A DNA stretch of 64,000 nt, from NCBI GenBank assembly GCA_947589675.1, contig CANQCI010000001.1, forward strand, positions 7,156 to 71,155, given 5' to 3'. How positions within the stretch are numbered: the stretch's first letter is position 1; each line of letters opens with the position of its first letter. This document shows, piece after piece, positions 38,593 to 56,430 of the stretch. The DNA comes from an uncultured Bacilli bacterium. GTDB taxonomy: Bacteria; Bacillota_I; Bacilli_A; RF39; UBA660. Below the pieces are notes generated by a model that ran no database searches, was not told the origin of the DNA, and was given only the letters and a program-made list of their open reading frames with translations. Position numbers and translations under genes: made by a program.

Positions 38593-41451
38593 TTAAATAT
38601 CTAGTTTTTCATATCTTGAGTAGTTGTTATCTGTTACCCAAATATTTACAGGACAATTATGGTGTTCTTTTAAATATTTTATATAATCAGCAATAGTATA
38701 TGTATCTAGCCATTCTTGATTATAGTTATTGGCTGGATTTTTTTCGTTAATTTTTTCTAAATTTTCTTTAAATTTTTTATAAGAATAAATGGTGGCTTTT
38801 TTATTATCTTTTGAAACTGCATAAAATACTTTCTTATCTAAAATATTGGTATCTTTAATTTCCTTGAAGATATTTGTAACTAAATTTTTGTTTTCTGGTT
38901 TACTATACCCGCAGATAATATCATAGCTTATGGCAAAATCACTCCCTAATTTTTGAGCTAAATCTTCGATATCTATGTCGTATTCTTTTTTAATTCCGTA
39001 GTATTTTAAAATTTCATAACGATTTTTGACAATCTCAGCAAATTCGTTTTTAAAATAGTGATTTTTGTCTAAACCATTTGCCATATCTAATAAATGTTTA
39101 TGAATACCATTGGTTCCCCCGATAACACCATCATCAATTTTTAATTCAATAAATTTAACTTTTTTATGTTCAAAATCAATAAATATATTATCAATACGTC
39201 CTTTTTTATTTTCCCGACTTCTTCCATTTTCAGGTATTGTTTCATCTTGGTTGTTTTCTTCATCAATTTCTTGTTCACTTTCTTTTTTTAAGTCTTTATT
39301 TGAAGCATAGAAAGTAAATTCCATTTCAAAAGGTATATCATTTTTCGTAAAAGGAGAAAGGGAAGCTTGAGCCATATCTTTTCTTCCTATTTTTGTTGCC
39401 ATTTTGGAAACTAAAGTTTGTTGAAAACTTTTTTCGCTATCAGTTCGAGTTTTAGCAAAGTCATTATCATAGTTACCTGCAAGTCCGGCGTAAATTTCAG
39501 CTCTTCTGGTCATAATATCCATTAAAGTATCAAAAGAAGTGCTATAATCAAATGCCGTTTCTTTTAGTCTAAAATTTACTTGTAAAGATTGAAAACCAGT
39601 TGGTTCTTTTGTTTTTAGATACTCATCATTTTCTTTTTTTAATTTAAAACCAGTTTGGGTATAACAAAGTAATTTTAATTTAAAAGCTTTTTCTAAATCA
39701 ATACTTTCTTCTTTGTTTATTGTTAAACAATAGCCTTTAGCTTCACCTTTATTTCTTGGGAAATATTCTGTAAAGTCATCGATTGGGACAATTGCTTGCA
39801 AATTTTCTTTAATTCGTTGGGCATTTTTTAGTTTATCTACTCCTTTTTCACTTGTTGAAAAAGGTAATTTAAATTTATTACTGGCATATTCTAATTTAAA
39901 ACCAATTGTCTTTAATGATTCATAATCATCGTTTACTTTTTGGTATGGTTTAATTTCGGTTATTTTATTTGCACAGGCTAACTCCATTAAATCATCGGCG
40001 TTGGTGTAATTAGGCAAGAACAATGAAACATTTAATATAATAGCCCCATTATAAAAATCAAATAATTTTACTCCTTTATAATAAACTTTAACTTCTGGCT
40101 TTTCTTTGGTGCCCCTGATTCTTAAACATATGTTATTTTTATCTTTTGATGGATTATAAAAATAATTAAAAAAATGGGTTGCTTTTTCTTTATTATCCAT
40201 GCTTACTTCGACATCTTCATTTTCTTTAACTAATATTACATTATCAAGGACATTTACTAGTTCTTCTGGTTTAGTTGTATGAATGGGAATAACTTTTTGA
40301 GCCTTTAGACTATTAAGTAAAGCAATTGTTTGGCGATCAGCATGACCTGATGTATGTAAATCAACAATCTCCTTGATGCCATATTTTTTAATTTCGTCTA
40401 AAAAGTTTTGCATATCTTCCTTTTCTTTATAACCACTCCACATAGAATAAATTAGACAGGCATTTGTAATATATCCTTTGGAAGCAAGCTTTTGAATTGC
40501 TTCTAACATGGAAGCTTTTATTAGAAAACAATATTTTTTATTTTGATAAGCCTTTTGTTTTGCACATCTACGAAGATTATTCACATACTTTTGTTTAAAT
40601 TCTAAACTCTTTCTTAAATATTTGGAAATTACCCATACATATACATCGTCATTATCATATGGATTAGGAATAGTAGCATCTTTTAAACGAACAGCTAAAT
40701 TGGCTGTAAACAAATCTTCAATAAAAGTTTTTCCTGTCGTTTTAGTGACTTGATAAAAACCTTTTAAACGATCGATATTAGTGGATGATTGTAAGATAAA
40801 AACTTGATCATACTTCTTAAAATATTCCTTAGCTCTGATCATTAAATGTTCTTCCGTTTCGTTGACAACTTCTGGGCGACTTAAGGAAGTCCCCTCAGTT
40901 ATAAGCATATCTACATGACCAATGGCTTTTAAGGTGGGCTTGAAATCCTTACCATTTAAACCATTATTACGAAAGTCGCCAGTATGAAGGATTCTTTTGC
41001 CATCCGCTTCGATTAAAATCATGGCGGAGTGATAAGCGGAATGATCGACAAAGTAGGGGGTAATTCGCATATCTTTAATTGTAATAGTTTTATTAAAAGG
41101 CATATCTAAGGTATTAAAACGGATACTTTTGGAGGTAAAAACTGATAATAATGTATATATTTTTTTCGAAATATCTTCAACATAAACCGGAATATCATCT
41201 AATATATAGTGAATTAAACCAATATGATCCCCATGACTATGGGTGATAAAGACCGCATCATACGTTTTATCCCCAGTTGTTAAACCATCAATCTTCGGAT
41301 TTTTGATTCTTTTTGTGGCATTATCATCCGGTAAATCTTCCCCAAAATCAATAATAATTCGTGTTCCTTGATTACTGGTAATTTCGGTAATACAACCACC
41401 AATTTGGTTGGTACCTTTTAAAATTCTAACTTTCATTTTTACATCTCCCAT
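38593..41451 (-). CDS. large two-nuclease-domain protein: N-terminal MBL/beta-CASP (RNase J-like) plus C-terminal PD-(D/E)xK-like domain
   Basis: N-terminus: FITHSHGDHIG (HxHxDH) ... later HTSGHA (beta-CASP motif C-like). C-terminus: GRIDNIFIDFEHKKVKFIELKID (D...ExK). The start may be the second ATG (41436), which has a GGAGA RBS. Confidence 0.55.
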   Translation of the reverse strand: MGDVKMKVRILKGTNQIGGCITEITSNQGTRIIIDFGEDLPDDNATKRIKNPKIDGLTTGDKTYDAVFITHSHGDHIGLIHYILDDIPVYVEDISKKIYTLLSVFTSKSIRFNTLDMPFNKTITIKDMRITPYFVDHSAYHSAMILIEADGKRILHTGDFRNNGLNGKDFKPTLKAIGHVDMLITEGTSLSRPEVVNETEEHLMIRAKEYFKKYDQVFILQSSTNIDRLKGFYQVTKTTGKTFIEDLFTANLAVRLKDATIPNPYDNDDVYVWVISKYLRKSLEFKQKYVNNLRRCAKQKAYQNKKYCFLIKASMLEAIQKLASKGYITNACLIYSMWSGYKEKEDMQNFLDEIKKYGIKEIVDLHTSGHADRQTIALLNSLKAQKVIPIHTTKPEELVNVLDNVILVKENEDVEVSMDNKEKATHFFNYFYNPSKDKNNICLRIRGTKEKPEVKVYYKGVKLFDFYNGAIILNVSLFLPNYTNADDLMELACANKITEIKPYQKVNDDYESLKTIGFKLEYASNKFKLPFSTSEKGVDKLKNAQRIKENLQAIVPIDDFTEYFPRNKGEAKGYCLTINKEESIDLEKAFKLKLLCYTQTGFKLKKENDEYLKTKEPTGFQSLQVNFRLKETAFDYSTSFDTLMDIMTRRAEIYAGLAGNYDNDFAKTRTDSEKSFQQTLVSKMATKIGRKDMAQASLSPFTKNDIPFEMEFTFYASNKDLKKESEQEIDEENNQDETIPENGRSRENKKGRIDNIFIDFEHKKVKFIELKIDDGVIGGTNGIHKHLLDMANGLDKNHYFKNEFAEIVKNRYEILKYYGIKKEYDIDIEDLAQKLGSDFAISYDIICGYSKPENKNLVTNIFKEIKDTNILDKKVFYAVSKDNKKATIYSYKKFKENLEKINEKNPANNYNQEWLDTYTIADYIKYLKEHHNCPVNIWVTDNNYSRYEKLDI

Positions 41452-41457
41452 TCTTTT

Positions 41458-42504
41458 TTAATGAATAATATACCAAGCATTTCTTTTAAAATCATAGCCG
41501 ATATTTTTATAAATTTTATTATAATCATGCATATAACGTTCGACACTTCTAAGGGTAAGCGAAAACTTTTTAGCAATTTCCTTAGTCGTAACTATATCCT
41601 TCTTTTTTAAATAAAGATGGATTTTTTCTAAAGATGCTTTTTTGTTTTTGGATAGTTTTATTTTTTTACTATTTAAAAGATATTTATAATAAAGTTCAAG
41701 GATAGAGTCATCATCAGGATATTCTTGATTAACGAAATAAATATTACTATATTTTAAATGATAAAAATTTAGCTTTTTTTCATCCTCGGTAAGTATATAG
41801 ACAAATTGAAAGTGATTAAATAGTTTACGATATTTTTTATCGATTTCCATAATCTCTTTTAAGGGTAACTTATCTTCGCCGATAATCAGTAGAAACCCTT
41901 GTTTCCTTTTTAAATCTTCCAGTTTATCAACTTTCTTTATATACGGAAAATGGAAATGATTTTCCTTAGTAAATTCATCTAGTTCTCTTTTATCGATTAA
42001 AGAATAATATAGGGAACCACAAAGATAAACGTTTCGTGACATTTGGGCTAAATCACTATCTTTAGGATAAATTTCAAATACTTTTAAAGGATAAGATTGT
42101 GCATCAATTTCCTGTAGTAATTCTTGTTGTCTTCTCAAAATATAAAAATATTCAGTCTTTTCATAATCACAAACTATTTTTAAAACTTTAGGTTCAATTT
42201 TTAAAAAAATAATAAAATCACAATCAACAATTTGGGTACTAAATAAAGGCTTTCCTTTTTCAATTTTGATTTGTTCTTCCATTCTTTTTCGTTCATTATC
42301 TGTTACATACCATTTTTCAATTGCCCCAAATTCTTTAATTAGTAATTCATCTAAGACATGATTATAAAGTTTTCCCATAGCCATAAATTGATAAATCTTT
42401 TGGATGGAAGTTTCACTGGCTGATAATACTAAAACTTTTTTATCTTGATTTTCTAAAAGAATTTTTTTTAACCGATTTAACTTTTCATTCATATTTTTCT
42501 CCAA
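41458..42504 (-). CDS. hypothetical protein with a C-terminal helix-turn-helix
   Basis: C-terminal ...DIVTTKEIAKKFSLTLRSVERYMHDY is HTH-like. It lies 6 bp upstream of the 952-aa gene. Confidence 0.45.
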   Translation of the reverse strand: MEKNMNEKLNRLKKILLENQDKKVLVLSASETSIQKIYQFMAMGKLYNHVLDELLIKEFGAIEKWYVTDNERKRMEEQIKIEKGKPLFSTQIVDCDFIIFLKIEPKVLKIVCDYEKTEYFYILRRQQELLQEIDAQSYPLKVFEIYPKDSDLAQMSRNVYLCGSLYYSLIDKRELDEFTKENHFHFPYIKKVDKLEDLKRKQGFLLIIGEDKLPLKEIMEIDKKYRKLFNHFQFVYILTEDEKKLNFYHLKYSNIYFVNQEYPDDDSILELYYKYLLNSKKIKLSKNKKASLEKIHLYLKKKDIVTTKEIAKKFSLTLRSVERYMHDYNKIYKNIGYDFKRNAWYIIH

Positions 42505-42556
42505 AGAAACATCTGTTACTATATATTTATTATAGCATGTCTTGATAATAATGAGG

Positions 42557-43129
42557 TTAAAAATTTTTCATAGTTAAATGATTAATAGAACTTACTTGCC
42601 AATTGGTGAAATTATATTTTTTAAATCCTTTTTCATTCATAAATAAGATAATTTGGGCATTATATCTTTTACTATATTTTTCAATGGTATTTTTTAGACA
42701 TTTAAAACTTTTGGTAGTATTTTTTAATAAATCTTCTAAACTATCAATAATAATCATTTGATATTCATTATCAAAATCAAAGATAATATCAACCCAGTCT
42801 TGTTCGGGAAATACTTTAGAACTACTAATAACTATATTAGCATGTCTAACTTTTTCTAAAGCTAAAATAAAATCTTGGACATTTATTTTTTGTTCTTTTA
42901 AAGCATTGGTTTTAGCTCCCACGGGAAACATATAGCTTTCTATTACTTGAAAATTAATTTTCGAAAGATGCGAGATTAAACGATTAACGTAATAGGAAGT
43001 ACGTAACAAAAAAGATTGCATATAAATAGTTTTTTGTTCTTTGATACCATATAAATCGAGAATATTAATAAGGAGAGGAATCCTTTCTTTAGGATTCCTG
43101 CTATAAATTAAAGATATACGTTCATTCAT
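42557..43129 (-). CDS. hypothetical protein (190 aa)
   Basis: ORF overlapping the upstream gene by 4 nt (ATGA). No motif recognised. Confidence 0.4.
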   Translation of the reverse strand: MNERISLIYSRNPKERIPLLINILDLYGIKEQKTIYMQSFLLRTSYYVNRLISHLSKINFQVIESYMFPVGAKTNALKEQKINVQDFILALEKVRHANIVISSSKVFPEQDWVDIIFDFDNEYQMIIIDSLEDLLKNTTKSFKCLKNTIEKYSKRYNAQIILFMNEKGFKKYNFTNWQVSSINHLTMKNF

Positions 43130-43890
43130 AGCTCATCATCAATTTTCAACACCTTATCTGTTTTTGAATCTAACTCAATCAAAAAAGTTTGCTCAAATAA
43201 ATTAAGGCTAACTGTTAATGATTCTTTATTAACATTTGATACTTTCCCCACCATATCTTTAAAAGCACCATTTAATATTTGCACTTTATCATCTTTCTTA
43301 ATATCTTCAAAAGCTGTGAACTCTTTTGGAATTTCTTCTTTCTTAGTGATTGTTCTTTCTTTAAGATAAGGTCGTAAATCAAATGGTTGGGGTTTTACTT
43401 CTGGGACATCTAATCCATAAAAATATTTATTGATACAAAATATTTCAAAATCTCTTGTTTGATTGGCTAGGGCTACATCATAATCATAAAATTCGAAGAC
43501 ATAATCAATATATTCATCAAGTCCTTCCATGTTTTTGTTTGCTCTTAATGCCTTACATTGGGTAATGATATCTTCATTTTCCTTGAGTAAATCATTTAAT
43601 TCATCGGGGTTATAATGATATTTTTTTGAGTAACTAGCCATCGGCAATTTTGGTAAGGGGGCTTTTACTTTGGCAACTTCTAGTCCATAAAAGTACTTCA
43701 CAATACAATATAAGATATATTTAAATTCCAAATCGTCCTCATGATGCATTGCCATATAAATTAATCGGTTAATATATTGTCTTACTCCTTTCTTCCGATA
43801 ATTCTTTTTTAATTCAAGCATTTGTTCAATAATGTTATCTTTTGACCTAATGATGTTGGCTACCTCCTTCGTTGCTCTAATAGAATACAT
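43126..43890 (-). CDS. KOW-domain protein with an internal tandem repeat (NusG-paralogue-like C-terminus)
   Basis: The C-terminal KDDKVQILNGAFKDMVGKVSNVNKESLTVSLNLFEQTFLIELD matches the NusG KOW pattern. Two internal repeats, KYFYGLEVAKVKAPLPKLP and KYFYGLDVPEVKPQPFDLRP. No obvious NGN domain. Confidence 0.5.
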   Translation of the reverse strand: MYSIRATKEVANIIRSKDNIIEQMLELKKNYRKKGVRQYINRLIYMAMHHEDDLEFKYILYCIVKYFYGLEVAKVKAPLPKLPMASYSKKYHYNPDELNDLLKENEDIITQCKALRANKNMEGLDEYIDYVFEFYDYDVALANQTRDFEIFCINKYFYGLDVPEVKPQPFDLRPYLKERTITKKEEIPKEFTAFEDIKKDDKVQILNGAFKDMVGKVSNVNKESLTVSLNLFEQTFLIELDSKTDKVLKIDDEL

Positions 43891-44151: not shown

Positions 44152-44394
44152 ATGGATAATGAAAACATGAATAATAAAATAATTATTAATGGAATAGAAT
44201 ATGAAATTGTAGCTTATTTAAAAAATGAGAATGGAAATTACTTAGTTTATACAGATGGAAAAATATTAGAAAGTAATAATGTTGCTCTTTATGTAAATTT
44301 AGTAGTTATAGAAAATGGTGAATTTAAATTAGAAAGTATTGATGATACAGAAGTTTCCAATGTTATTGAATTATTGAAAGAGAGGTTAAAATAA
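44152..44394 (+). CDS. small DUF1292-like protein (80 aa)
   Basis: IEYEIVAYLKNENGNYLVYTDG ... VIENGEFKLESIDDTE..VIELLKE pattern. Paralogue of 61384-61632. Confidence 0.4.
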   Translation: MDNENMNNKIIINGIEYEIVAYLKNENGNYLVYTDGKILESNNVALYVNLVVIENGEFKLESIDDTEVSNVIELLKERLK

Positions 44395-45713
44395 TGATTA
44401 TATCATCTAGATTGGTAGAATTAATGAATTATAAAGATTTTTTAGAATATGAAATTAGACTTCGAGAAACTATTAGACCTTTTGATTTTGTGTATTTAAA
44501 CGGCAGGGCTAATAAGACATTAGGAACATTAAAAGCTGCTTTAGTTGAGATGGAAAATATTTTAGTTAATATTGAACAAATCACTAAATTAAGTAATATG
44601 TTAAATGATGTAAAAAAAATAAAACCTTTACAACAAGAATTAGAACAAAATAGGAAAGCTAAAGAAGCTGTTAAAAATATTGATACTATTAGTAATGATG
44701 TAAGGAAAGATTTAAACGGGTTACAAGAACAATTTTTTACTCAACTACAATATTGTTATGACTTGAAAAATAAAGTTGCTCAACAAATTGTTGATTATGA
44801 AGAAAGAAAAAACTATGATAAAAAAACTGAAGAGTTTGCTTCTTTAGCTCGCAATTCTTTAGTAAATAAAGGAAGGGTTCCTTTTCAACAAGAAACCTTG
44901 CTGCAAGATGCAAATGAAAAAGTAAAAGAACATGATGAAAAAGCAACTACAATAGATAAAGATTATGCCTTTTTAAGTAGTCACGAAAATACTTTAGATA
45001 GAGCTCTAAATGCTTTGGAGGATATTTTAAAAACTCCAGCTACTTTTTCGGAAAGACAAAATGTTGGGTTACAAACTAAAATTAAAAAGGAAGTAGCCAA
45101 CATAAAAAAAGCCTTACCACCTAAAGTTATTTTGGTTTCAAAAGAGTCATTGAGTAAATTAAGAGAATCTGATCAATTAACCAATGATTTAAGATTTATT
45201 CAAGCTTTATTACAAAATCCCCCAACTTTAGTCAATAGAAGTTATTGGGAATATAATGCTCGAATAGATAAAATTAGAAATTTATTAGATCAAGCTTTAC
45301 AATTTGAAGAAAAAAGAAAATCTAATATTGAACAAGAACGCAATACAATAGCCAAAAAAGAAAAGTTTGCTACCGATGCGGTTAATAAATATGCTAATAT
45401 TTTAAATGATAATCAAATAACTCAACAATCGCAAATTCATATTGAAAATGGTCAATTTGATTTACAAGCTGAAAATGAAAGATTAAAATTGGCACGTGAT
45501 GAAGCCTATAGAAATGGTGATTACGAAAAAGCTCGAAGTATTCAAGAAACCATATCTGCTAACGAAAAAACTATCGCGGGAATAATGAGTAAAAGTGCTG
45601 TTACCACATTACCTTTAGAGTATACGGATATGAAACAAAAATTAAAGAATATGAGTTTTTTATATCAAAATGATGATTCGCAAACTTTATCAAATGAAGG
45701 AAGACCGAGATAA
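44394..45713 (+). CDS. hypothetical coiled-coil protein (439 aa)
   Basis: Helical and coiled-coil throughout. Translationally coupled to its flanking small genes (TAATG overlaps). Confidence 0.45.
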   Translation: MIISSRLVELMNYKDFLEYEIRLRETIRPFDFVYLNGRANKTLGTLKAALVEMENILVNIEQITKLSNMLNDVKKIKPLQQELEQNRKAKEAVKNIDTISNDVRKDLNGLQEQFFTQLQYCYDLKNKVAQQIVDYEERKNYDKKTEEFASLARNSLVNKGRVPFQQETLLQDANEKVKEHDEKATTIDKDYAFLSSHENTLDRALNALEDILKTPATFSERQNVGLQTKIKKEVANIKKALPPKVILVSKESLSKLRESDQLTNDLRFIQALLQNPPTLVNRSYWEYNARIDKIRNLLDQALQFEEKRKSNIEQERNTIAKKEKFATDAVNKYANILNDNQITQQSQIHIENGQFDLQAENERLKLARDEAYRNGDYEKARSIQETISANEKTIAGIMSKSAVTTLPLEYTDMKQKLKNMSFLYQNDDSQTLSNEGRPR

Positions 45714-46000
45714 TGTCCCAAAAACAAGATGTATTTAATTCTTTTATGGATGAGTTTGTTAAACTAGACATAAGTCAAAAGAACCACGAAATAATTGAAA
45801 AACAAAAATTAATAATAGCTTTTTTATTTAAGTATGCTACGGAACATGGAATAAAATATGAATCTATAAAAAGTAAAGAAATTAATGATATTATGGAAAA
45901 TAAGGGAACTAATGAAGACTATTTAGAGGCTATGATGGTTTATACTCATAATATTGAAGAATTAATTGGACTTATTTTAAATCGAGGAAATTATAAATAA
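45713..46000 (+). CDS. small helical protein (95 aa), paralogue of 61089-61382
   Basis: EAMMVYTHNIEELIGLIL aligns with EAVFVYINAIKELIGNYV in the 61089 ORF. Confidence 0.4.
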   Translation: MSQKQDVFNSFMDEFVKLDISQKNHEIIEKQKLIIAFLFKYATEHGIKYESIKSKEINDIMENKGTNEDYLEAMMVYTHNIEELIGLILNRGNYK

Positions 46001-46036
46001 AAACAACCTATCATATGCGAAGATGGTTGTTTTTGT
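45999..46036 (+). terminator. rho-independent terminator
   Basis: AAACAACC-tatcatatgcgaagat-GGTTGTTTTTGTT. Confidence 0.4.
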
Positions 46037-46245
46037 TCTTTCGTTACAGTTCAGTCAGATAAATACAGGGATTGAGGGACATTTTTAGTATAAAAATAAT
46101 GTTTTTTAGCAAAAATTCAGTCAATATTTATAATTTTTGCTCTAAAAAGAGAATTTGATACTTTATTAAAAATATCTATTATTCCCATTAATTACAATGG
46201 TTTATTTATATTTTTAATTCCTTGACTGAACTGTAACGTTCTTTC
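46036..46245. mobile_element. MITE-like element / IS footprint: 16-bp perfect terminal inverted repeats flanked by a 7-bp direct repeat
   Basis: TTCTTTC[CGTTACAGTTCAGTCA ...165 bp... TGACTGAACTGTAACG]TTCTTTC. The interior is non-coding and holds a nested IR GCAAAAATT/AATTTTTGC. Confidence 0.45.
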
Positions 46246-46333
46246 ATTTGAATAGGTGAATAAGTATTTAAAATGAATTTAATTTATGATATATTATGTT
46301 TAGCAAAGATTTATTTAGAAAGGACAATAATAT

Positions 46334-47413
46334 ATGAAAAAAGATACTTATGTAAATTATATAAAATATACTTTAAGCACCTATAATAAAGCAAATAAGA
46401 GAGAATTAATAAAGTTATATAAAGATGCTAATTTAGTAAAGGAAAAAAATGCTTATCCAACTATATTTGATGATGATTTAGTGGATATAGATTATACTAA
46501 TATGGATAATACTATTATTGATTGTATAAAAAAGCATGATGAGGCAATTGAAATATATGAAAAATATCAATTTACAAAAGCATATAAATATGCCGTTTTA
46601 TTTAAATGTTCTGATTTTGAAAAATTGTTATTAAAAATAGATGAAATCGCTGAATATGAATATAATAATACCAATGTAAAACTATTTGATGAATTACAGC
46701 AGCCCACTAAAATAATATATAATAATGACAGTATATTATTGTTTAATAAAAAGTTTGAAGCTGTACACCCTCAAACTGGGGAAGAATTATTATTACATTA
46801 TCCATTATTAGCCATAGTTCACAAAGAAAGTAAACTTGTTGAATTTAGATTTGATACAATAAAAAGGCTGTTTACTGATGGAGATAGAGACCAAAATATA
46901 TATGTGAAATTGATTGATGAATTAATAAATTATTTTAAAACAACGTTCGACAGTGATTTGTTGGCTATTAATTTAGATTTTATGATTGAAATAACAAAGG
47001 AGGAATCTAATAAAAATATTAAATTATTATCGCAATACATGTTTTTAAAAGATGGTGGTAAAGCCCAATTAACAGTGGGCAATAATGAAGAATATGTGTT
47101 ACCAATTATAGGAGAATTAAAAAACATAATCAATGAATTAAGAGAAGAACTAGACAAAAATGTCAAAATTAAAGACGCTTTAGAACAGTTTGTATATGAA
47201 AAAGAAGAAACGACAGATTATCCTTGGATTGAAGTTTTATTTTTGGATGAAGAGGGAATAAAAACTAGAAATAATCATGTAAAATTTACATTTAACTATA
47301 TGAACAGAAATTATTGCTTAATAACATATTATTATAATGATACATTAATTGAAATGGAGAGGATGAATAATGTCACAAGATTTATTGGAAAAAATATTGA
47401 AAGACAAAATTGA
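46334..47413 (+). CDS. hypothetical protein (359 aa)
   Basis: First gene of a tightly overlapping three-gene operon. No motif recognised. Confidence 0.45.
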   Translation: MKKDTYVNYIKYTLSTYNKANKRELIKLYKDANLVKEKNAYPTIFDDDLVDIDYTNMDNTIIDCIKKHDEAIEIYEKYQFTKAYKYAVLFKCSDFEKLLLKIDEIAEYEYNNTNVKLFDELQQPTKIIYNNDSILLFNKKFEAVHPQTGEELLLHYPLLAIVHKESKLVEFRFDTIKRLFTDGDRDQNIYVKLIDELINYFKTTFDSDLLAINLDFMIEITKEESNKNIKLLSQYMFLKDGGKAQLTVGNNEEYVLPIIGELKNIINELREELDKNVKIKDALEQFVYEKEETTDYPWIEVLFLDEEGIKTRNNHVKFTFNYMNRNYCLITYYYNDTLIEMERMNNVTRFIGKNIERQN

Positions 47414-47714
47414 TTTAAATCTTGATGAAGCGATAAAATTTTTAATGAAATTTAAAAAAAATGAATATATTTATCCAAGTACAATTAAAAGAAATTTAAA
47501 GATAGATGATAAAAAAGTTTATGAGGTATTAACACTATTGGAAAATGCTGGTATTATAAAAATGTATTATGAATTTTTTTGCTACAATTGTAATAATTCA
47601 AAAGGTTTGTATACCTATTTTAATGAATTAAACGATGAATTAGTTTGTGATTATTGTGAGAATAAACTAAATAGTAATGATAATATTAAAATAGTGTATA
47701 AGGTGATTAAATAA
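47370..47714 (+). CDS. small winged-helix plus C4 zinc-ribbon protein (114 aa)
   Basis: ...KVYEVLTLLENAGIIKMYYEFFCYNCNNS...CDYCENKL. Overlaps the upstream gene by 44 nt. Confidence 0.45.
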   Translation: MSQDLLEKILKDKIDLNLDEAIKFLMKFKKNEYIYPSTIKRNLKIDDKKVYEVLTLLENAGIIKMYYEFFCYNCNNSKGLYTYFNELNDELVCDYCENKLNSNDNIKIVYKVIK

Positions 47715-47716
47715 GC

Positions 47717-48412
47717 ATGAATGATATAGATAGTATAACAACGGCGTTTAAAAATTTGGGTAATGAAATATCTTATAAAAAAATATGCGAATTTACCGAT
47801 AATCAAAGAAAAGAATATAAAATTCTTTTAGCTAATTTAGAAAAAGTAAATTCAACAAAACAATCATCAAGCGAAAAAGGAAAGGCACTTGAAGATATTG
47901 CTTCATTTGTTTTAAAAACAAGCAATATTTTTGATGTGTATCAGAATATATTGACTTCAACAAATGAATTAGACCAATTAGTTAGAACTAATAATAAAGG
48001 TAAAATTTTATTTTCGAATGGGATAATTGATAAAAGACTAAAAAGTTTTATATGTGAATGTAAAAATCATAAAGAAAAAATTTCTGTAACTTATGTTGGT
48101 AAGATATGCAGTTTATTATCTACAACAAAAAATAAAATTTGTATTTTATTTTCTTACTATGGAGTTTCTGGTAAAGAATGGAAAGATTCTGTTGGATTAA
48201 TAAAAAAGTTTTATTTGTCAAAAGAAAATGAAGAAGATAGATATTGTATAATAGATTTTAATATAAAAGATTTTATAAGTATAGAAAAAGGTAACAATAT
48301 TCTTCAAATTATAGAAGATAAAATTTTGGCTTTACAAAATGATACTAATTACATATATTTGTTAAGTCCACATGAATCGGAAAAGAAAGTATTAGAATTA
48401 CAAGAAATATAA
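47717..48412 (+). CDS. restriction-endonuclease-fold (Mrr_cat-like, PD-(D/E)xK) protein
   Basis: GKALEDIASFVL ... TNELDQLVR ... FICECKN ... ILFSYYGVSGKEW fits the Mrr catalytic-domain pattern (E...D...ExK). Confidence 0.5.
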   Translation: MNDIDSITTAFKNLGNEISYKKICEFTDNQRKEYKILLANLEKVNSTKQSSSEKGKALEDIASFVLKTSNIFDVYQNILTSTNELDQLVRTNNKGKILFSNGIIDKRLKSFICECKNHKEKISVTYVGKICSLLSTTKNKICILFSYYGVSGKEWKDSVGLIKKFYLSKENEEDRYCIIDFNIKDFISIEKGNNILQIIEDKILALQNDTNYIYLLSPHESEKKVLELQEI

Positions 48413-48506: not shown

Positions 48507-49970
48507 GTGAAAATTTATGATAAGCTAATAAATAGAATTAGTGAAACAAAATATTTAAATGCCGAAAATTCCTATCGCTATCGACCCATTATGCGGGTAT
48601 TTTATAATCATTATATTAAGTTAGAATATTGGCTTTATAAAGAAGATATTTATAATGAATTAAAAGATAATGCCATATTTAGTGAGTATACTTTAGATGA
48701 TTGCGAACGAGATTTAGATATATTAACTGAATGGTTAAGTTTAACAAGACTTCAAGATACCAAAAATGCTTTATCACTTCCAGAATTTAAAAATAAAAAA
48801 TTTCGTTATCAAATGACTGAGTATGCTACCGAGATTGAAAGATTAGTCATATCTTTAGAAGAATTGGAAATCAAGGCTTCTTCATTGGAACCTAAATTGT
48901 TTGATCGCTTAAAAGATACAATTGCTAAATTAGAAAATACTATTTCTTTAAGTCCTGATGAAGTTAACGAAATATGGAATGATTTAAATGATAATTTTAC
49001 AAAACTAAATGAAAGTTATCAAGATTTCTTAAAGAAATTTAATGAACCTAAAACTGAGGAGTTATTTCAAGGAGAAGCATTTTTAAAATATAAAACGGAA
49101 ATAATAAGTTATTTAAGAAATTTTATTCAAAGTTATCAACAAAATATAAATAAGATAAAATATAGTATAAACAAAATTGATGAAGAAATAAAATTAGATT
49201 TTATCAATAAATTAGTAAGATATAATGAACAAAATCCCTTATTAAATCAAAATTTTGATTTTGGTTATTTTAAAGAATTAAATTTTGATAAACTAACTAA
49301 TATTTTGAAATGGTTTGTTAGTAATGATTCTACCTTAAGTGAAGGTCAAAAATTAATGGATACAACCGATAATATTATTGTTTCTCTTACCAAGTATGCC
49401 AATTCTTTAATTGAACTGCGAGGGAATATGACTAGCCGCAAGGAGGAATATAAACATCTTTGTCAACAATTTGATAAAATAAGTAACATGGATGAAGCTC
49501 ATAGACTTGCTGCGGTTATCTTAGGTATAAGTAATGTTAGACATTTTTTAGGAAATTCTAATATTACGACTGATACAATTGTAAATACTTATGATAATCC
49601 ACCTCTGGAAATAATTTTATCATCAAGAACCAAAAAACGAAAAGAAAAGATTGATTTAAAACCTATTGAAGATAAAACGCTGGCGAAAAGAAAAATTTTA
49701 GAGGAATATCGTTTAGAGCAAGAAAAAAATAAAGAAATATTAAAGAGTTTGATAAAGAATAAAAAAATAATTTTAGAAAATGAGAGACAATTAACGAAAA
49801 TTGAACGCCGGTATATTCAAAAATTATTAGCATCATCGCTAACACATAAAGAAACGGAATTTGGGCTAAGTTATAAAATCAAGAAAAAAGAGGGAACATG
49901 TAAAATAGTATCGGAGGATGGAATATTTTATATGCCAAGTTTAGATATAGAATTTATGGGGGATATATGA
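48507..49970 (+). CDS. jetA: Wadjet JetA (TIGR02677/DUF3375 family, kleisin-like)
   Basis: The N-terminal NAENSYRYRPIMRVFY motif is characteristic of TIGR02677. 487 aa. GTG start after an AAGGGGGAAAA RBS. Confidence 0.75.
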   Translation: MKIYDKLINRISETKYLNAENSYRYRPIMRVFYNHYIKLEYWLYKEDIYNELKDNAIFSEYTLDDCERDLDILTEWLSLTRLQDTKNALSLPEFKNKKFRYQMTEYATEIERLVISLEELEIKASSLEPKLFDRLKDTIAKLENTISLSPDEVNEIWNDLNDNFTKLNESYQDFLKKFNEPKTEELFQGEAFLKYKTEIISYLRNFIQSYQQNINKIKYSINKIDEEIKLDFINKLVRYNEQNPLLNQNFDFGYFKELNFDKLTNILKWFVSNDSTLSEGQKLMDTTDNIIVSLTKYANSLIELRGNMTSRKEEYKHLCQQFDKISNMDEAHRLAAVILGISNVRHFLGNSNITTDTIVNTYDNPPLEIILSSRTKKRKEKIDLKPIEDKTLAKRKILEEYRLEQEKNKEILKSLIKNKKIILENERQLTKIERRYIQKLLASSLTHKETEFGLSYKIKKKEGTCKIVSEDGIFYMPSLDIEFMGDI

Positions 49971-51136
49971 TAGATAAACATACAAAAGAATTAGAATATT
50001 TATTAAATAATTTTTGGTGTCTTAAAGATCAAAATCCTAGCTTATATTGGGAAATAAAAAATAATTTAGATTATTATAAAGACTTTGTCCAAACGAAATT
50101 AGGAAGTGTGCTTATTGTTAACGATCGTTTAATAAAATTAGAAAAGATTCCCACTATTCCTAAGGCTTATATGGGAATTAATGCTTTTGGGCAACCTTTA
50201 GAATATGTTCTTTTATTTCTTATTTTATTATTTTTAGAAGATAAACCAAAATCTAAACAATTTATTCTTTCTAATTTAATTGATTTTATTGATAATACGG
50301 CAAGAGGATTAGAGCTTGATCATTTACCGGATTGGAATATATATCAACATCGGAAATGTTTAGTTAATGTGATGCATCATTTGGAAGATATGGGGATTAT
50401 TAAGGTAGTTGACGAAATCTATAATTTTTCGGAGGATAAACAGGCTGAGGGGTTATATGAATCAACTGGGATATCAAATTATTATATTCGCAGATTTCAA
50501 AATAATATTTTAAATTATGAAACAATTGAAGATTATTTAAATGATGAATATACTAAGTATACCGATAAGGATATAAAAAGAATGAAAATTTATCGAAATT
50601 TATTATATTCACTCGTTATTTATCCAGAAGAGTTAACGGAGTTTGAATGGGATTACTTACGCAAATTTCGGGGAACTATAAGTAATGAATTAAGTAAATA
50701 TACGGATGGGGAATTAGAAATCACTAAAAATATGGCATTACTTTTATTTCCTATGGAAGGACGTCAAAGTTATGATTTTCCTAATTCTAAAGCTATATGT
50801 GATATTATTTTATTAATTAATAATTATCTTTTAGAATTAGTAGATAAAGGGGAATTACAATTAAATCAACAAGAAATAATTGTTATATCAGAAGAATATT
50901 TCAAAAGAATTATTAAAGAAGTTAGAAATGAATCAGGTTTATATTTTAGTAAATATTATAAAGATTTATCTTTTACTAGTTTTTATCAAGATATAGTAGA
51001 ATGTATGCAGGAATATGATTTTCTGAAAATAAATGATTTAGAAGTTAAAATATATCCTATGGTTTCAAAATTAATTGGGTATATACCGCAAGATCCTTTA
51101 CAACAATTAGATTTATTTGGGGGTAATTATGAATAG
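49967..51136 (+). CDS. jetB: Wadjet JetB (TIGR02678-like)
   Basis: 389 aa. Its start overlaps the jetA stop (ATGA) and it lies between jetA and jetC. The assignment rests on position and size. Confidence 0.6.
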   Translation: MIDKHTKELEYLLNNFWCLKDQNPSLYWEIKNNLDYYKDFVQTKLGSVLIVNDRLIKLEKIPTIPKAYMGINAFGQPLEYVLLFLILLFLEDKPKSKQFILSNLIDFIDNTARGLELDHLPDWNIYQHRKCLVNVMHHLEDMGIIKVVDEIYNFSEDKQAEGLYESTGISNYYIRRFQNNILNYETIEDYLNDEYTKYTDKDIKRMKIYRNLLYSLVIYPEELTEFEWDYLRKFRGTISNELSKYTDGELEITKNMALLLFPMEGRQSYDFPNSKAICDIILLINNYLLELVDKGELQLNQQEIIVISEEYFKRIIKEVRNESGLYFSKYYKDLSFTSFYQDIVECMQEYDFLKINDLEVKIYPMVSKLIGYIPQDPLQQLDLFGGNYE

Positions 51137-54100
51137 ATATAAAGTAACAAAAATTGGTTTATTAAATTTTTGGTTATATGATGAAGAAGAATATGATTTT
51201 TATGGAGGAAAGTTAATTTTAAGAGGAGCAAATGGCAGTGGAAAGTCTGTTACCATGCAATCTTTTATTCCTTTGATTTTAGATGGCAATAAAAGTCCTG
51301 AGCGATTAGATCCATTTGGTTCTAAAGAACGAAAAATTGAGGATTATGTTTTAGGAATTGATGATTATTTACAAAAAGAAGAATCGACAGCTTATTTATA
51401 CATGGAAACTTATAATTCTTCTTTAAATAAATATTTAACGATTGGTTTAGGTTTTCGAGGCAGAAAAGGTCGTCCTGTGGAATCTTGGGGTTTTGCCCTA
51501 AAAGATGGTGCCCGAATAGGACATGATTTTTATTTATATAAAGACCCTGTTAATAAGATTCCTATTAGCAAAAATGAATTAAAAAGTCGGCTAGGAACCA
51601 TAAATGAATTTTGGGATAATATGAAAGATTATAAAGCTATGGTTAATCGGCTTCTTTTTGGTTTTCCTAATTTAGATGCCTATGACGAGTTTATTAAACT
51701 TCTTTTACAATTACGAAGTAATAAATTATCAAAAGATTTTAAACCAACTAATTTAATTAATGTTTTAAATTCTGTGCTACAGCCTTTAACAGAAGAAGAT
51801 TTACGCCCTTTAGCCGAGGCTATTGAACAAATGAATAAAACCAAAATAGACATTGAGTTATTAGAAAAAAGTCAAAAATCAGTGCATGATTTTTTGAAAG
51901 TATATAATAATTATAATGAATCTATTCTTTTAGATAAAACTCGTCGTTATAAAGAAGTTCAAGATTTTTATAATAATTTATTGAATGATATAAAGATAAA
52001 AAATAACTTTTTAAAAGAATGTTCTACTAATTTAGAAAATAATAAAAAACGTTTTAATAAAGTTATCGAGGATATCGAGGTTAATAAAGAGAAGAAAGAA
52101 CAATTAGATGATAGTGATTTAAAACAAAAAATTGAATCATTAGCATCTTTAGAAGACAATATTAAAAATCTGGCAAATAAAATCGAGGAATTAGAGCAAA
52201 AAAATGATACTTTGCAACAAGATAAGTTAGCTTTAAATAATAAAATTTCCACAAGTGAAGATGAAATATATAAATTAAGAAAAGAAATAAAAGAAGTTTT
52301 AATTGATTTAAAAGATTTAAGTAATGATGCTTATAGTGGAAAATTAGTTAATTATGTGGAAATGCTTGAAAATGATTTATTTAGTGTTTCAATAGATGAT
52401 TTATTAATTTCTTTAAAAAACTATAAGGAAAAAGTAACTAAGGTTTTAAAACTATTAGAAGAGGAAAATGATATTAATTTAGAAAGTGAAAAGCAAAGAA
52501 TTGAATTTGCCAAATTAACTCAAGAATATCAAGAATTAGAAAAACAAATTATGTTAGCTCAAAAGAATTTGACCGAGGCTATAATGGCATGGCAAGAAGA
52601 TTTTATTAATAAGGAACATAACAATAATTATTTAAAATTAACCGATTATGTTAAAAAGCAAATTTTGGAATTAATGAATGATTATACCAAGGCAAATTTT
52701 GAAAAAGTTGTAAATATTTATAAAGATTATGCTCAAGATTTAATAAATGGCGTTATCAAAGAAAATTTAATATTGCAAAATAAAATAGATTCAAAGAAGT
52801 TAGAATTAAGCACTTTAGAAGAGGAATATCATAAATTAGAAAATCAAGATGATTTAGAAATTCCCTCTTTAAATAAAGATATTGCTGAAATTTTAAAGAA
52901 TAACAAAATAGAAAATATTCCTTTATATAAATGTTTAGAATTTAAAAATAATATTTCTGATACGGAAAAGAATAATATTGAATCTTTATTACTAGATTTA
53001 AATATTTTAAATGCTTTAGTTATTAAACCAGAAGACATAGACAAATTAGATAATATTAAAACGCCAATTATTTATTTAACTAAATCAACAAAGAAAAAAG
53101 ATAATATCTTAAAATATTTTAATATTGTAATTCCCAATGGTTCTTCTATTAAAGAAAGTTATTTAAAAGAAATTTTAGAATCTATTAGTATCAATCCCGA
53201 TGACCTGGTGGCAATTGATCCTAAGGGGAAAGCCAAAATGGATATGCTTAATTTTCTTCCTGATTATACTTATAAACAAAAGTTTATTGGCTTTTTAAAA
53301 AGATTAGAATTAAAAAAGAAACAATTAGCCGAATTACAAGAAAAAATTACCTTAAATAAGGAAGAAATTAATAATATCAATAGTTTAATTGTTAGTAATG
53401 AAAATAAAATAGAAATTTTAAGAAAAGAACAAAATAATATCCCAAATAATGATTTTATAAAAGGAATAGAGAATAATATTGAAGATTTAAAACGTAATTT
53501 AAATTGGACAGATAAAAAACAAAAAGAAGTTGAAGAAAGTTTAAAAATAATAGATAATAATTTGAAAAAAGTTAAAACCGAAATTATGAATAATAAGGAA
53601 GGTTTAGTAATTCCTTTAAATATTGTTACTTATCAACAAACTTTAACTGTTTTAAATAATATTAATGAAATTGTGCAAAGTTTTCATGTTACATTAAAAT
53701 CTTTAGATAATAAATTAGAAATTCAAAAAAGTTATCAAGAACGCTTAGAAGATGTTACGAATAATATTGAATATTCTTTAGATGAACAACGAGAAAAAAA
53801 TAAAGAATTACAAGTAATTAAAGCGAAAAAAGCTACGATTGAAGAGATATTAGAAACTAAAGAATTTAAGGAACAAAAAAATCAACTTTTAGAAATTGAA
53901 AAAAACTTACATGATTTAACCTTAGAAAAAGATAGTTTAATTAAGGATATTGCTAAATTAGAAAATGAACTTGAACATCAACAAGAAAAAATAAATGAAT
54001 TAAATAATTTAAAAGAAAAAAAGGAAAAAGAAGCTAATGCTTATCAAGATATATTTTTAAGAGAATATAAATTAGGTTATGTTTATCAAGAAGATATTAC

Positions 54101-55205
54101 GAATATAAGTGATACTGTTAAAAGAATTATAAATGCGGGTAAAGATAAAAAAGAAATTGATTTAAATTCGTTAGCAAATAGTTTTTTTACAGCTTATAAT
54201 AAATATTCTTTAGAATTAAATGATTATTATTTTCAAATAATTACTATCTTTGAGGATTATGAAATAGAAGATAAAAATATAGCGAAAATTTATCAAGAAA
54301 ATAAAAGAATAGATATAACAACCTTGTATCAAGGAATAAAATTAAATATCTTTGAATTAAAAGAAAAAATAGATAATGATATTTTAGCCAATAAAGATTT
54401 AATTAATGAACAAGATAGACGGTTGTTTGAAGAAATATTATTAAATACGGTTGGGGAAAAAATAAGAAATAAAATTAATGATTCTAATGAATGGATTAAA
54501 AAAATAAATGATATTATTGCGGAGATGCAAAAAGAAAGTGCCCTTAGTTTTAAATTAGTTTGGAAAAGCATTAATGCCGAAAGTGAAGATGAGATTGATA
54601 CCAAAGAATTAGTGCGAATCTTAAAAATGGATCCCCATATGTTAAAAGAAGTTGATGCCGAAAAATTAACTAATCATTTTCGCAGTAAAATTAAAAAAGC
54701 CGAAGAGTTATATCAAGATTCATATGCTTCTTTTACCAAAATTATTGAAGAAATTTTAGATTATCGTTCGTGGTTTACTTTTCAATTATGTTATCAAAGA
54801 AAAGGAAATGAATTTAAAGAATTAACTGATAAAACCTTTGCTAAGTTTAGTGGGGGTGAAAGAGCGAAGAGTATGTATATTCCTTTGTTTGCCAGTGTAT
54901 ATGCTAAGTTATTTATGGCTAGGAGTGATTCTTTAAGATTAATTGCTTTAGATGAAGCTTTTGCGGGAGTAGATGAAGAAAATATTCGGGAAATGTTTGG
55001 TATTTTAAAAAAATTAGATTTAGATTTTATTATCAATTCCCAAGTTTTATGGGGCGATTATGATACAATTGACGATTTATCTATGTGTGAATTAATAAAG
55101 CCTCCCAATTCTTTAGCAGTTTCTGTTGAAAGATATCGCTGGAATGGTAAATATAAAGAAATAATTGTTGATAGAAAAAAATATAATGAGGAACATAATG
55201 CATAG
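51129..55205 (+). CDS. jetC: Wadjet JetC, SMC-like ABC ATPase (TIGR02680 family)
   Basis: N-terminal Walker A GANGSGKSVTMQS, ~900 aa of coiled coil, then a C-terminal signature/Walker B ...FSGGERAKSMYIPLFA ... LIALDEAFAGVDEEN. ~1358 aa. Confidence 0.85.
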   Translation: MNRYKVTKIGLLNFWLYDEEEYDFYGGKLILRGANGSGKSVTMQSFIPLILDGNKSPERLDPFGSKERKIEDYVLGIDDYLQKEESTAYLYMETYNSSLNKYLTIGLGFRGRKGRPVESWGFALKDGARIGHDFYLYKDPVNKIPISKNELKSRLGTINEFWDNMKDYKAMVNRLLFGFPNLDAYDEFIKLLLQLRSNKLSKDFKPTNLINVLNSVLQPLTEEDLRPLAEAIEQMNKTKIDIELLEKSQKSVHDFLKVYNNYNESILLDKTRRYKEVQDFYNNLLNDIKIKNNFLKECSTNLENNKKRFNKVIEDIEVNKEKKEQLDDSDLKQKIESLASLEDNIKNLANKIEELEQKNDTLQQDKLALNNKISTSEDEIYKLRKEIKEVLIDLKDLSNDAYSGKLVNYVEMLENDLFSVSIDDLLISLKNYKEKVTKVLKLLEEENDINLESEKQRIEFAKLTQEYQELEKQIMLAQKNLTEAIMAWQEDFINKEHNNNYLKLTDYVKKQILELMNDYTKANFEKVVNIYKDYAQDLINGVIKENLILQNKIDSKKLELSTLEEEYHKLENQDDLEIPSLNKDIAEILKNNKIENIPLYKCLEFKNNISDTEKNNIESLLLDLNILNALVIKPEDIDKLDNIKTPIIYLTKSTKKKDNILKYFNIVIPNGSSIKESYLKEILESISINPDDLVAIDPKGKAKMDMLNFLPDYTYKQKFIGFLKRLELKKKQLAELQEKITLNKEEINNINSLIVSNENKIEILRKEQNNIPNNDFIKGIENNIEDLKRNLNWTDKKQKEVEESLKIIDNNLKKVKTEIMNNKEGLVIPLNIVTYQQTLTVLNNINEIVQSFHVTLKSLDNKLEIQKSYQERLEDVTNNIEYSLDEQREKNKELQVIKAKKATIEEILETKEFKEQKNQLLEIEKNLHDLTLEKDSLIKDIAKLENELEHQQEKINELNNLKEKKEKEANAYQDIFLREYKLGYVYQEDITNISDTVKRIINAGKDKKEIDLNSLANSFFTAYNKYSLELNDYYFQIITIFEDYEIEDKNIAKIYQENKRIDITTLYQGIKLNIFELKEKIDNDILANKDLINEQDRRLFEEILLNTVGEKIRNKINDSNEWIKKINDIIAEMQKESALSFKLVWKSINAESEDEIDTKELVRILKMDPHMLKEVDAEKLTNHFRSKIKKAEELYQDSYASFTKIIEEILDYRSWFTFQLCYQRKGNEFKELTDKTFAKFSGGERAKSMYIPLFASVYAKLFMARSDSLRLIALDEAFAGVDEENIREMFGILKKLDLDFIINSQVLWGDYDTIDDLSMCELIKPPNSLAVSVERYRWNGKYKEIIVDRKKYNEEHNA

Positions 55206-56430
55206 TTATACCAAATATTTTAAAGAACAAATCGGTTTTAAAAGATTTATGGAAGCTTTATATCAAAAATATCTTTCTTTAGGTAAAATAACCGGAAAAA
55301 TATCTTTAGAAAGACTTACCAAGGAAGAAGCTCATGTTTTATCGAAACTTTTTGGCTATAATTATCAAGAAGCAACGGATTTTAAAATTAGTGTTTTAAC
55401 TTTTACTAAAGTTATGGCAGCCTCTAAATATGAAGATTTTGATTTAAATACTTTAGTCGAAGAATATTTAGGGGTTAAATTAGTTTCTAAAAAAGAAACA
55501 AAAGAAAAAGAAAGAGAAGAAGAAAGGGCATTTTACCAAAATATATTAGACGAAAGTAAAGCTAGTAAATGGTTATTAAATGTAATTGAAACCAAAGAAA
55601 ATCCTTATTCTTCTCTGCATAAAAGATATTTAAAAGAAAAAGAGTTATTGAAAAAGGAGTTAGTAAATGTATTAGCTTTACTAAATAACTTACCGAAAGA
55701 AAGAACTTTAATTTCGATTTATGCTGCCAACATTACCATGGATCCTCATTATTTAGATTTAGATAATAATCATTGTCTGTTGTTTTTCTCCGGCTTAGCT
55801 TATTTTAGTCACTGTTCTTATCCTTTAACTAGGGAAGATAAAATAAAATTATTATCTTTAAATAATATAGAAATAGATAATTTATCTAATTTTGTCATAA
55901 CGTATAATTTGCATACTAATAGAGAATATTTAAATAACTTTTATCAAACAAAAGAACCTGTTATTTTGAATATTCAAAATATTTTAAATATTGATTATAT
56001 AGAGGGAATAAATCAAAAAATAATAATTGTGGAAAACCCGTCAATATTAAATGAAATTATAGCACGAAAGATGAATGTAAGTGTTATAGTTTCTGGGGGA
56101 TTTGCCAATACAGCTGTTTATTTACTTTTAGATAAAATCAATAATAATCAATTATTTTATAATGGGGATTTTGATCCCGAAGGATTACTTATTGCTCAAA
56201 AATTAAAAGAAAAATATCCTAATTTACAATTATTTTGTTATCAAAAAGAAGATTATGAAGCATCATTTTCCAAAAATGAAATTAGTAATGCGAGAATTAA
56301 TAAATTAAAAGGTATAAAAGAAAAAGATTTAATGGTTATAAGTAATTTAATTAAAACTAAAAAGAATGTTGCTTATCAAGAAAATAATAAAGAAAGAATT
56401 ATGGAATTTATTAAAAAATTATATTGGTAA
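55198..56430 (+). CDS. jetD: Wadjet JetD (TIGR02679; C-terminal Toprim-like DUF2220)
   Basis: C-terminal IIVENPSILNEI ... VIVSGGFANTAVYLLLDKI ... FYNGDFDPEGLLIAQKL matches the Toprim DxD core. The start is taken at ATG 55198 with a GAGGAA RBS; the ORF track opens at TTG 55165. Confidence 0.75.
   Translation: MHSYTKYFKEQIGFKRFMEALYQKYLSLGKITGKISLERLTKEEAHVLSKLFGYNYQEATDFKISVLTFTKVMAASKYEDFDLNTLVEEYLGVKLVSKKETKEKEREEERAFYQNILDESKASKWLLNVIETKENPYSSLHKRYLKEKELLKKELVNVLALLNNLPKERTLISIYAANITMDPHYLDLDNNHCLLFFSGLAYFSHCSYPLTREDKIKLLSLNNIEIDNLSNFVITYNLHTNREYLNNFYQTKEPVILNIQNILNIDYIEGINQKIIIVENPSILNEIIARKMNVSVIVSGGFANTAVYLLLDKINNNQLFYNGDFDPEGLLIAQKLKEKYPNLQLFCYQKEDYEASFSKNEISNARINKLKGIKEKDLMVISNLIKTKKNVAYQENNKERIMEFIKKLYW

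Follow-up and report, generated by a model that had tools for sequence, protein, structure and literature searches.

A 195-bp element between two gene modules of an uncultured gut Bacilli bacterium is probably one copy of a MITE

A short AT-rich sequence with inverted ends separates two gene modules in a 64,000-nucleotide stretch of DNA (the window) from an uncultured gut Bacilli bacterium. Is this sequence a mobile element, a recombination site, a regulatory structure or a chance inverted repeat? The first-pass annotation of the window described a ~196-bp MITE-like element and leaned towards a non-autonomous IS derivative, with a recombination site and a structured regulatory RNA as further options. 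The element occupies positions 46043-46237; the MITE part of that description holds, and the size is corrected to 195 bp. With a probability of about 0.9, the sequence is one copy of a MITE, a non-autonomous DNA transposon without a gene of its own. The leading idea of the first-pass annotation is supported by recurrence of the terminal inverted repeats (TIRs), by 8-bp duplications that are particular to each copy, and by absence of the element from relatives of the adjoining gene cassette.

The locus is composed of the following features.

45999-46034, plus strand: terminator-like hairpin of the upstream module (AAAAACAACC...GGTTGTTTTT), from a repeat finder and our own reading
46035-46042, no strand: left copy of the target-site duplication GTTCTTTC, identical to 46238-46245; the other 12 loci have other 8-mers
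46043-46057, plus strand: left TIR GTTACAGTTCAGTCA, 15 bp, invariant in all copies found
46043-46063, plus strand: left end of 21 nt, the TIR plus GATAAA, a presumed transposase-binding site (IRL); alignment columns 1-21 are identical
46058-46222, no strand: non-coding interior, 80% AT, including a subfamily-specific nested inverted repeat, from ORF, Rfam and pairing analyses
46221-46237, minus strand: right end, the invariant 16 nt TTGACTGAACTGTAAC (46222-46237) plus the near-invariant C46221, from copy alignments
46238-46245, no strand: right copy of the target-site duplication GTTCTTTC, from the repeat finder and locus comparison
46267-46295, plus strand: cassette promoter, TTTAAA, a 17-nt spacer and a TG-extended TATATT, from a promoter scan and conserved in relatives

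The right TIR proper spans 46223-46237. T46222 adjoins it and belongs to the invariant 16 nt, and the preceding C46221 is replaced by A in one copy only (L006). Perfect TIRs of 16 bp and a 7-bp direct repeat had been proposed at first. The 16-nt arms CGTTACAGTTCAGTCA (46042-46057) and TGACTGAACTGTAACG (46223-46238) are indeed exact reverse complements, and the 64-kb window contains no other match to them, even at 3 mismatches. TTCTTTC likewise stands on both sides, at 46036-46042 and again at 46239-46245, and the repeat finder reports a direct repeat GTTCTTTC(G/A)TT with starts at 46035 and 46238. The left TTCTTTC and the left 16-nt arm have C46042 in common. The actual left junction is gTTCTTTCGTTACAG, and the string TTCTTTC-CGTTACAG given at first counts C46042 twice, with one C in excess. 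Taken alone, the window fits either a 16-nt inverted repeat with overlapping flanks or a 15-nt inverted repeat plus an 8-nt direct repeat. The base outside the 15-mer varies among the 12 other insertions. Thus, the TIR is 15 bp and the duplication is the 8-bp GTTCTTTC, rather than 16 and 7. The empty site of the window locus can be reconstructed as GGTTGTTTTTGTTCTTTCATTTGAATAGGTG.

The interior is without coding capacity, as the first reading had stated: no ORF above 28 aa overlaps the element, the longest being 28 aa. The nested inverted repeat reported within it is present (GCAAAAATT/AATTTTTGC, 46111-46119 and 46132-46140) but is not conserved across the family, being kept only in the subfamily formed by the window copy and the copies of one related genome (contig prefix CANPZX). 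TTCAGTCA, the innermost 8 nt of the left TIR, occurs again at 46116-46123, within a 24-nt direct repeat of 75% identity. This repeat is absent from the other subfamilies and probably reflects chance.

The number of copies was a question raised by the first-pass annotation, and the TIR pair is found at 12 other loci in related genomes and metagenomes. Searching a single representative genome of each GTDB species for the pattern GTTACAGTTCAGTCA-N{150,180}-TGACTGAACTGTAAC yields 11 further elements in 4 MAGs, all titled "uncultured Bacilli bacterium". By contig prefix, CANPZX and CAKPBH contain four copies each, CAKPOS two and JAVWDK one, each on a separate contig. The 21-nt left end, used as a query against metagenomes, adds five contigs (L055-L059), which represent one locus sampled five times. 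Together with the window, these make 13 independent insertion loci, with elements of 189-196 bp.

All 13 loci carry an 8-bp flanking duplication, which is A/T-rich and of different sequence at each. The target-site duplication first noticed in the window therefore has a counterpart at every copy. The two flanks match at 8/8 positions at eight loci, at 7/8 at three and at 6/8 at two. The perfect duplications are GTTCTTTC, AAAAAATT, AAAAATAT, AACAAAAA, GAATAAAG, AAAAATTA, TATAATTT and CTCTTTTT. At this base composition, the chance of a single perfect 8/8 flank match is estimated at ~2e-4. Duplications of fixed length and variable sequence are the signature of transposition via staggered cuts.

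The copies appear to differ in age. The four CANPZX copies are 100% identical and have unrelated flanks with four different perfect duplications, and this identity at unrelated loci indicates recent transposition. The CAKPBH copies are 96-99% identical to each other. Imperfect duplications are commonest in this subfamily, as expected of older insertions. The 64 kb available from the window genome contain one copy only. Metagenome samples with this locus include ERZ27249206, ERZ27249221, ERZ27059539 and ERR10663674-76. All assemblies that are 100% identical at the window locus carry the element, and five contigs from independent assemblies of this locus (L003, L004, L005, L021 and L022) end in or beside it. 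Contig ends of this kind are typical of repeated sequence, which indirectly points to multiple copies in the window's own genome as well.

Conservation of the family is concentrated at its ends. An alignment of every copy in a common orientation shows no variation in the leftmost 21 nt (GTTACAGTTCAGTCAGATAAA) or the rightmost 16 nt (TTGACTGAACTGTAAC). The CANPZX copies share 92% identity with that of the window, and overall identity between the four subfamilies is 57-63%. Once the ends are removed, global alignment of interiors across subfamilies exceeds shuffled sequence by no more than z = 1-4. The left TIR is adjoined internally by GATAAA and the right TIR by AGGAAT or a similar sequence, so that the two ends differ from each other as do the IRL and IRR of an IS. 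The copies show no compensatory change and no conserved internal pairs, which argues that the ends are conserved as sequence, as putative protein-binding sites, and not as RNA structure.

Length is kept at 189-196 bp although the interiors of different subfamilies approach random similarity. This narrow range suggests that the spacing of the ends is constrained by transposition efficiency. An AAGG...ATG motif near the left end of some subfamilies was considered as a possible relic of transposase coding sequence; it is unconserved and its frame is inconsistent, and the idea was set aside as speculative.

All 13 insertions are intergenic, and both orientations relative to the neighbouring genes occur. 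At L008, L014 and L016, the element lies either between convergent genes, a position counted once, or 7-13 nt past a stop codon. Other copies are located between divergent genes or upstream of a gene. The copy in contig L058 closely precedes the promoter of a T-box-led gene and is located 69 nt upstream of the T-box leader (L058 7813-8004). The 324-nt left flank in this contig is duplicated 5 kb apart, at 2207-2530 and 7228-7550. The copy of the flank that lies 5 kb away from the element contains CTCTTTTT once and no element, and represents a paralogous empty site. In L056 and L057, the element abuts the other copy of the 324-nt repeat, and the intervening 5 kb appear to be absent from these two contigs or, alternatively, to have been duplicated in L055, L058 and L059. 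A search for an orthologous empty site of the window locus, via homologues of the flanking genes, found none; identical proteins always occur with the element. A preference for terminators as targets was also considered and rejected, as a hairpin and T-tract adjoin the target at the window locus only.

The window locus lies in a defence island. The first-pass annotation placed the element between a terminator and the next promoter, and this placement agrees with the hairpin at 45999-46034, read by eye, and the promoter at 46267-46295, found by scan. The hairpin has a 16-nt loop and is not called by the consensus terminator scan, so it is a putative terminator. The element probably inserted into the T-rich tail of this hairpin, and the duplication would keep the tail intact. 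The promoter is not contained in the element; it follows the right copy of the target-site duplication at a distance of 22 nt. In relatives of the cassette (L060-L065), whose first protein is 72-87% identical, the promoter is kept, the element is absent and the upstream neighbours are different. The element is therefore not part of the conserved control region of the cassette. The possibility of an intergenic region conserved in relatives, named at the outset as an argument against a MITE, is thus contradicted by the cassette relatives, which do not carry the element.

The cassette consists of three genes (window 46334-48412) encoding proteins of 359, 114 and 231 aa. These proteins have no match in Pfam, NCBIfam or PADLOC, and their PHROGs matches are confined to families of unknown function. 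Homologues of the first protein number 130. In relatives, the cassette lies directly downstream of Wadjet JetD (L060 and L065), whereas here it is directly upstream of JetA. Its neighbours in relatives also include an SNF2/AEP-TOTE helicase, HipA or Mob_Pre. The cassette is a candidate for an uncharacterised defence module or a Wadjet-associated module. Contig L001, from one metagenome sample, has two ORFs of 56 and 158 aa in place of the 231-aa third cassette gene (L001 6486-7176, corresponding to window 47717-48412), although its first cassette gene is 100% identical. The split gene resembles a pseudogene variant within a natural population.

Several other modules surround the locus. A complete Wadjet (JetABCD-like) operon follows the cassette at 48507-56430 and is composed of JetA2 (DUF2397), a DUF2398 protein, a 1362-aa SbcC-like ATPase (JetC) and a DUF3323/DUF2399 JetD_C protein (JetD). 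The upstream three-gene module (44152-46000) encodes proteins of 80 aa (with a sub-threshold DUF1292 match), 439 aa and 95 aa. No family match was obtained for this module, and the homologues found among 5.8 billion proteins number only 9. Besides an identical protein, all relatives of the 439-aa protein share at most 51% identity with it. A four-gene block on the minus strand (38593-43890) encodes a 952-aa metallo-beta-lactamase/RMMBL-fold protein, a 348-aa weakly HTH/WYL-like protein, a 190-aa protein without match and a KOW-motif protein of 254 aa, and may be another defence or regulatory module. A TIGR04255-family protein (56878-57714), a PRiA4_ORF3-like protein (61888-62940) and a 333-aa SWIM zinc finger protein (35922-36923) are of kinds typical of genomic islands.

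The search for a cognate transposase, which the first-pass annotation had suggested, gave a negative result in the window, the related loci, IMG/VR, plasmids and phages. In particular, no autonomous partner with the same TIRs around a transposase gene is present in the window, in ~200 kb of related loci, in IMG/VR or in plasmid and phage records. A search of the related loci for full-length IS elements, defined as TIR-like pairs with at most 5 mismatches, 300-4000 bp apart and with a target-site duplication, returned nothing credible. TIR-like matches in L007 and L012 (3 mismatches) were rejected, as a partner repeat is lacking and their similarity to the element ends does not extend further. 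Among the neighbouring ORFs, Pfam, NCBIfam, PADLOC and PHROGs identify neither a transposase nor a recombinase. IMG/VR contains 2 single matches to the 16-mer and 34 to the 15-mer. These are attributed to chance, since they lie in unrelated, mostly higher-G+C sequence, some of it visibly coding, and the similarity does not extend. When plasmids and phages were searched by blastn with the element and with its leftmost 35 nt, only AT-rich noise was obtained, and a full-text literature search for the 15-mer TIR gave no match.

Explanations other than a MITE have to be weighed against these observations. An inverted repeat of this size can arise in AT-rich intergenic DNA by chance: order-1 Markov simulations give a mean of 0.88 perfect 15-mer inverted-repeat pairs within 400 nt per 64 kb, and the window contains one, that of the element itself. 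The inverted repeat alone is therefore not decisive, and the case rests on the adjoining 8-bp duplication and on recurrence at 12 loci. That this 15-mer pair recurs with equal spacing and 8-bp duplications at those 12 other loci, and that its arms have 40% G+C in a window of ~26% G+C, makes coincidence a negligible possibility. An invertible promoter switch (inverton) would account for inverted repeats on either side of a ~165-bp AT-rich segment that directly precedes a defence-island operon. A recombinase would flip the segment and thereby switch the cassette and the Wadjet operon, and the other copies would form a regulon, much as the same repeats occur at several loci per genome in multi-locus inverton systems. 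Promoter-like matches are present inside the segment, but their number (13, versus 10.2 ± 3.4 expected from shuffled sequence) is unexceptional and they are not conserved between subfamilies. Moreover, a different 8-bp direct duplication lies outside the inverted repeats of each copy, and invertases make none. The element has one orientation in all independent assemblies of the window locus (L001, L002, L004, L005 and L019-L022) and in 5/5 assemblies of the L055-L059 locus. A promoter would serve no purpose at the positions of some copies, which lie between convergent genes or follow a stop codon within a few nt, and no recombinase gene is seen nearby. An inverton is thus very improbable, and the recombination-site option of the first-pass annotation finds no support in the fixed orientation and the variable target-site duplications.

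A conserved cis-regulatory element or structured RNA of the cassette, such as a leader, an sRNA or a DNA-looping operator pair, would suit the position between terminator and promoter, and the element folds at z = -6 relative to shuffled sequence. However, the fold energy comes from the stem formed by the TIRs. With ten representative copies as input, RNAalifold keeps 16 pairs only, none of them covarying, with 0 compensatory pairs and no internal pair. No Rfam match is found in the element (E <= 1), homologous cassettes keep their promoter without the element, and copies recur beside unrelated genes. The structured regulatory RNA proposed as an option at first therefore lacks conserved internal pairs, covariation and an Rfam match, and a regulatory element of either kind is extremely improbable. 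Collectively, the absence of an ORF, an Rfam match, covariation and flipping argues against a structured RNA, an invertible switch and a conserved regulatory site. It is also conceivable, if improbable, that a true MITE has been exapted at the window locus, where it could insulate against read-through, supply an UP-like or bent AT-rich region, or affect expression of the cassette and the Wadjet operon through an outward TTGACT. The element lies 22 nt upstream of the cassette -35, the L058 copy is comparably near the promoter of the T-box-led gene, and an invariant, outward-facing -35-like TTGACT is present at the right end (46222-46227). No -10 is found at usable spacing past TTGACT in either the window or L058, however; orientation and position relative to genes are inconsistent over the 13 loci, and both the terminator and the promoter are intact without a contribution from the element. 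Two arrangements involving TTGACT were examined and discarded: a hybrid promoter, for which the flank has no -10 at 16-18 nt spacing, and a promoter at an end-to-end junction, in which the distance from -35 to -10 would be at least 27 nt.

The MITE reading accommodates these results. The element displays TIRs, variable 8-bp duplications, multiple copies and conservation restricted to the ends, and it gives no coding or RNA-structure signal. Several of the features by which a MITE is recognized are found here: a size within ~50-800 bp without a transposase ORF, conserved TIRs of at least 10-15 bp, target-site duplications of fixed length and variable sequence, and, in relatives, copies at unrelated loci of one genome (4 + 4 + 2 in three MAGs). 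In the proposed mechanism, a transposase encoded elsewhere in the genome would bind both ends, recognizing the 15-bp TIR within the 21-nt left and 17-nt right end, and would pair them. Integration would proceed into A/T-rich intergenic DNA through 8-bp staggered cuts, the repair of which would yield the flanking GTTCTTTC duplication. In the window, the target would have been the T-rich tail that follows the hairpin of the upstream module, with 22 nt left between the insertion and the -35 of the cassette promoter. The transposase is presumably of the DDE type and acts in trans, and movement may be of either the cut-and-paste or the copy-and-paste kind. Most likely, the window insertion is neutral or nearly so and has little or no function at this site.

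MITEs are widespread in prokaryotes and were reported in 56.5% of 183,232 genomes (PMC11602168). They measure 50-800 bp, have TIRs of at least 10-15 bp and target duplications of 2-10 bp, are mostly intergenic and depend on an external transposase (PMC11602168). Like these, the element is short (195 bp), multi-copy and intergenic, with a perfect TIR, a duplication and no transposase ORF, and it has the same TIRs around different interiors in different hosts. Unlike described MITEs, its interiors have diverged almost to randomness, yet the length stays at 189-196 bp.

The closest in style among the insertion sequences found is ISApl4, a member of the IS1016 group of the IS1595 family, which has 14-bp perfect inverted repeats and A/T-rich 8-bp direct repeats and inserts mostly into non-coding DNA (PMC12561309). 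ISApl4 is autonomous, with a length of 712 bp and a 217-aa DDE transposase (PMC12561309). The resemblance is limited to short perfect inverted repeats (14 versus 15 bp) and A/T-rich 8-bp repeats: the ISApl4 inverted repeat GGGGCTGTACTAGA is unrelated to the TIR GTTACAGTTCAGTCA, and no IS1595-type transposase is linked to the element. The IS6 family is characterized by an 8-bp target duplication, ~14-bp perfect inverted repeats and MITEs of 227 and 336 bp (PMC7986276). It therefore shares with the element the 8-bp duplication, short perfect inverted repeats and a MITE form. IS6 elements move by cointegrate formation, and no IS6 transposase is linked to the element. Their ends begin GG... (for example GGTTCTGTTGCAAAGT), unlike the TIR described here. 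An 8-bp duplication is compatible with IS1595, IS6, IS256, ISL3, IS66 and IS1. Known termini of these families are GG... or GTAA..., and the element ends GTTAC... do not match. As the terminal sequences of ISApl4 and IS6 are unlike GTTACAG..., no membership of an IS family is claimed.

Other intergenic repeats offer further parallels. Correia elements of Neisseria and RUP of Streptococcus pneumoniae are bounded by TIRs, measure 100-200 bp and are without coding capacity, and their copies can adjoin promoters and terminators. They duplicate a TA dinucleotide, whereas the element duplicates 8 bp, and their hosts and sequences differ. The invertons of gut bacteria share with the element inverted repeats around a short AT-rich segment, a location upstream of operons and several loci per genome. 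Unlike invertons, the element has variable 8-bp duplications, shows no flipping in the assemblies compared and also occupies non-promoter positions; it neither functions as an inverton nor falls within that class.

The family is thus new within a well-known kind, the MITEs, which are ordinary selfish DNA, and in the scans made it is found only in a few species of uncultured low-G+C gut Bacilli. We regard it as possible, though rather unlikely, that the element is the trace of an undescribed IS family or transposase lineage that is restricted to a small clade of uncultured low-G+C gut Bacilli and persisted there until the interiors were randomised, with 21 + 17 nt at the ends kept unchanged. 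If so, a conserved trans-acting transposase with a strict requirement for the spacing of the ends would be at work, its lineage would not be recognisable from any known IS terminus, and the length would be fixed at ~194 ± 3 bp. The spacing might then correspond to the shortest DNA loop that can be synapsed.

The element has no bearing on long-standing open questions; its significance is local. It explains the assembly breaks at the window locus in these gut Bacilli. Within a defence island, it marks a recent insertion that separates an uncharacterised three-gene module from the cassette that accompanies Wadjet. The 15-bp signature GTTACAGTTCAGTCA can be used to seek the mobilising transposase in complete genomes. 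In addition, conservation of the ends alone, combined with a tightly kept length, is of modest interest for how MITEs persist and what limits their size.
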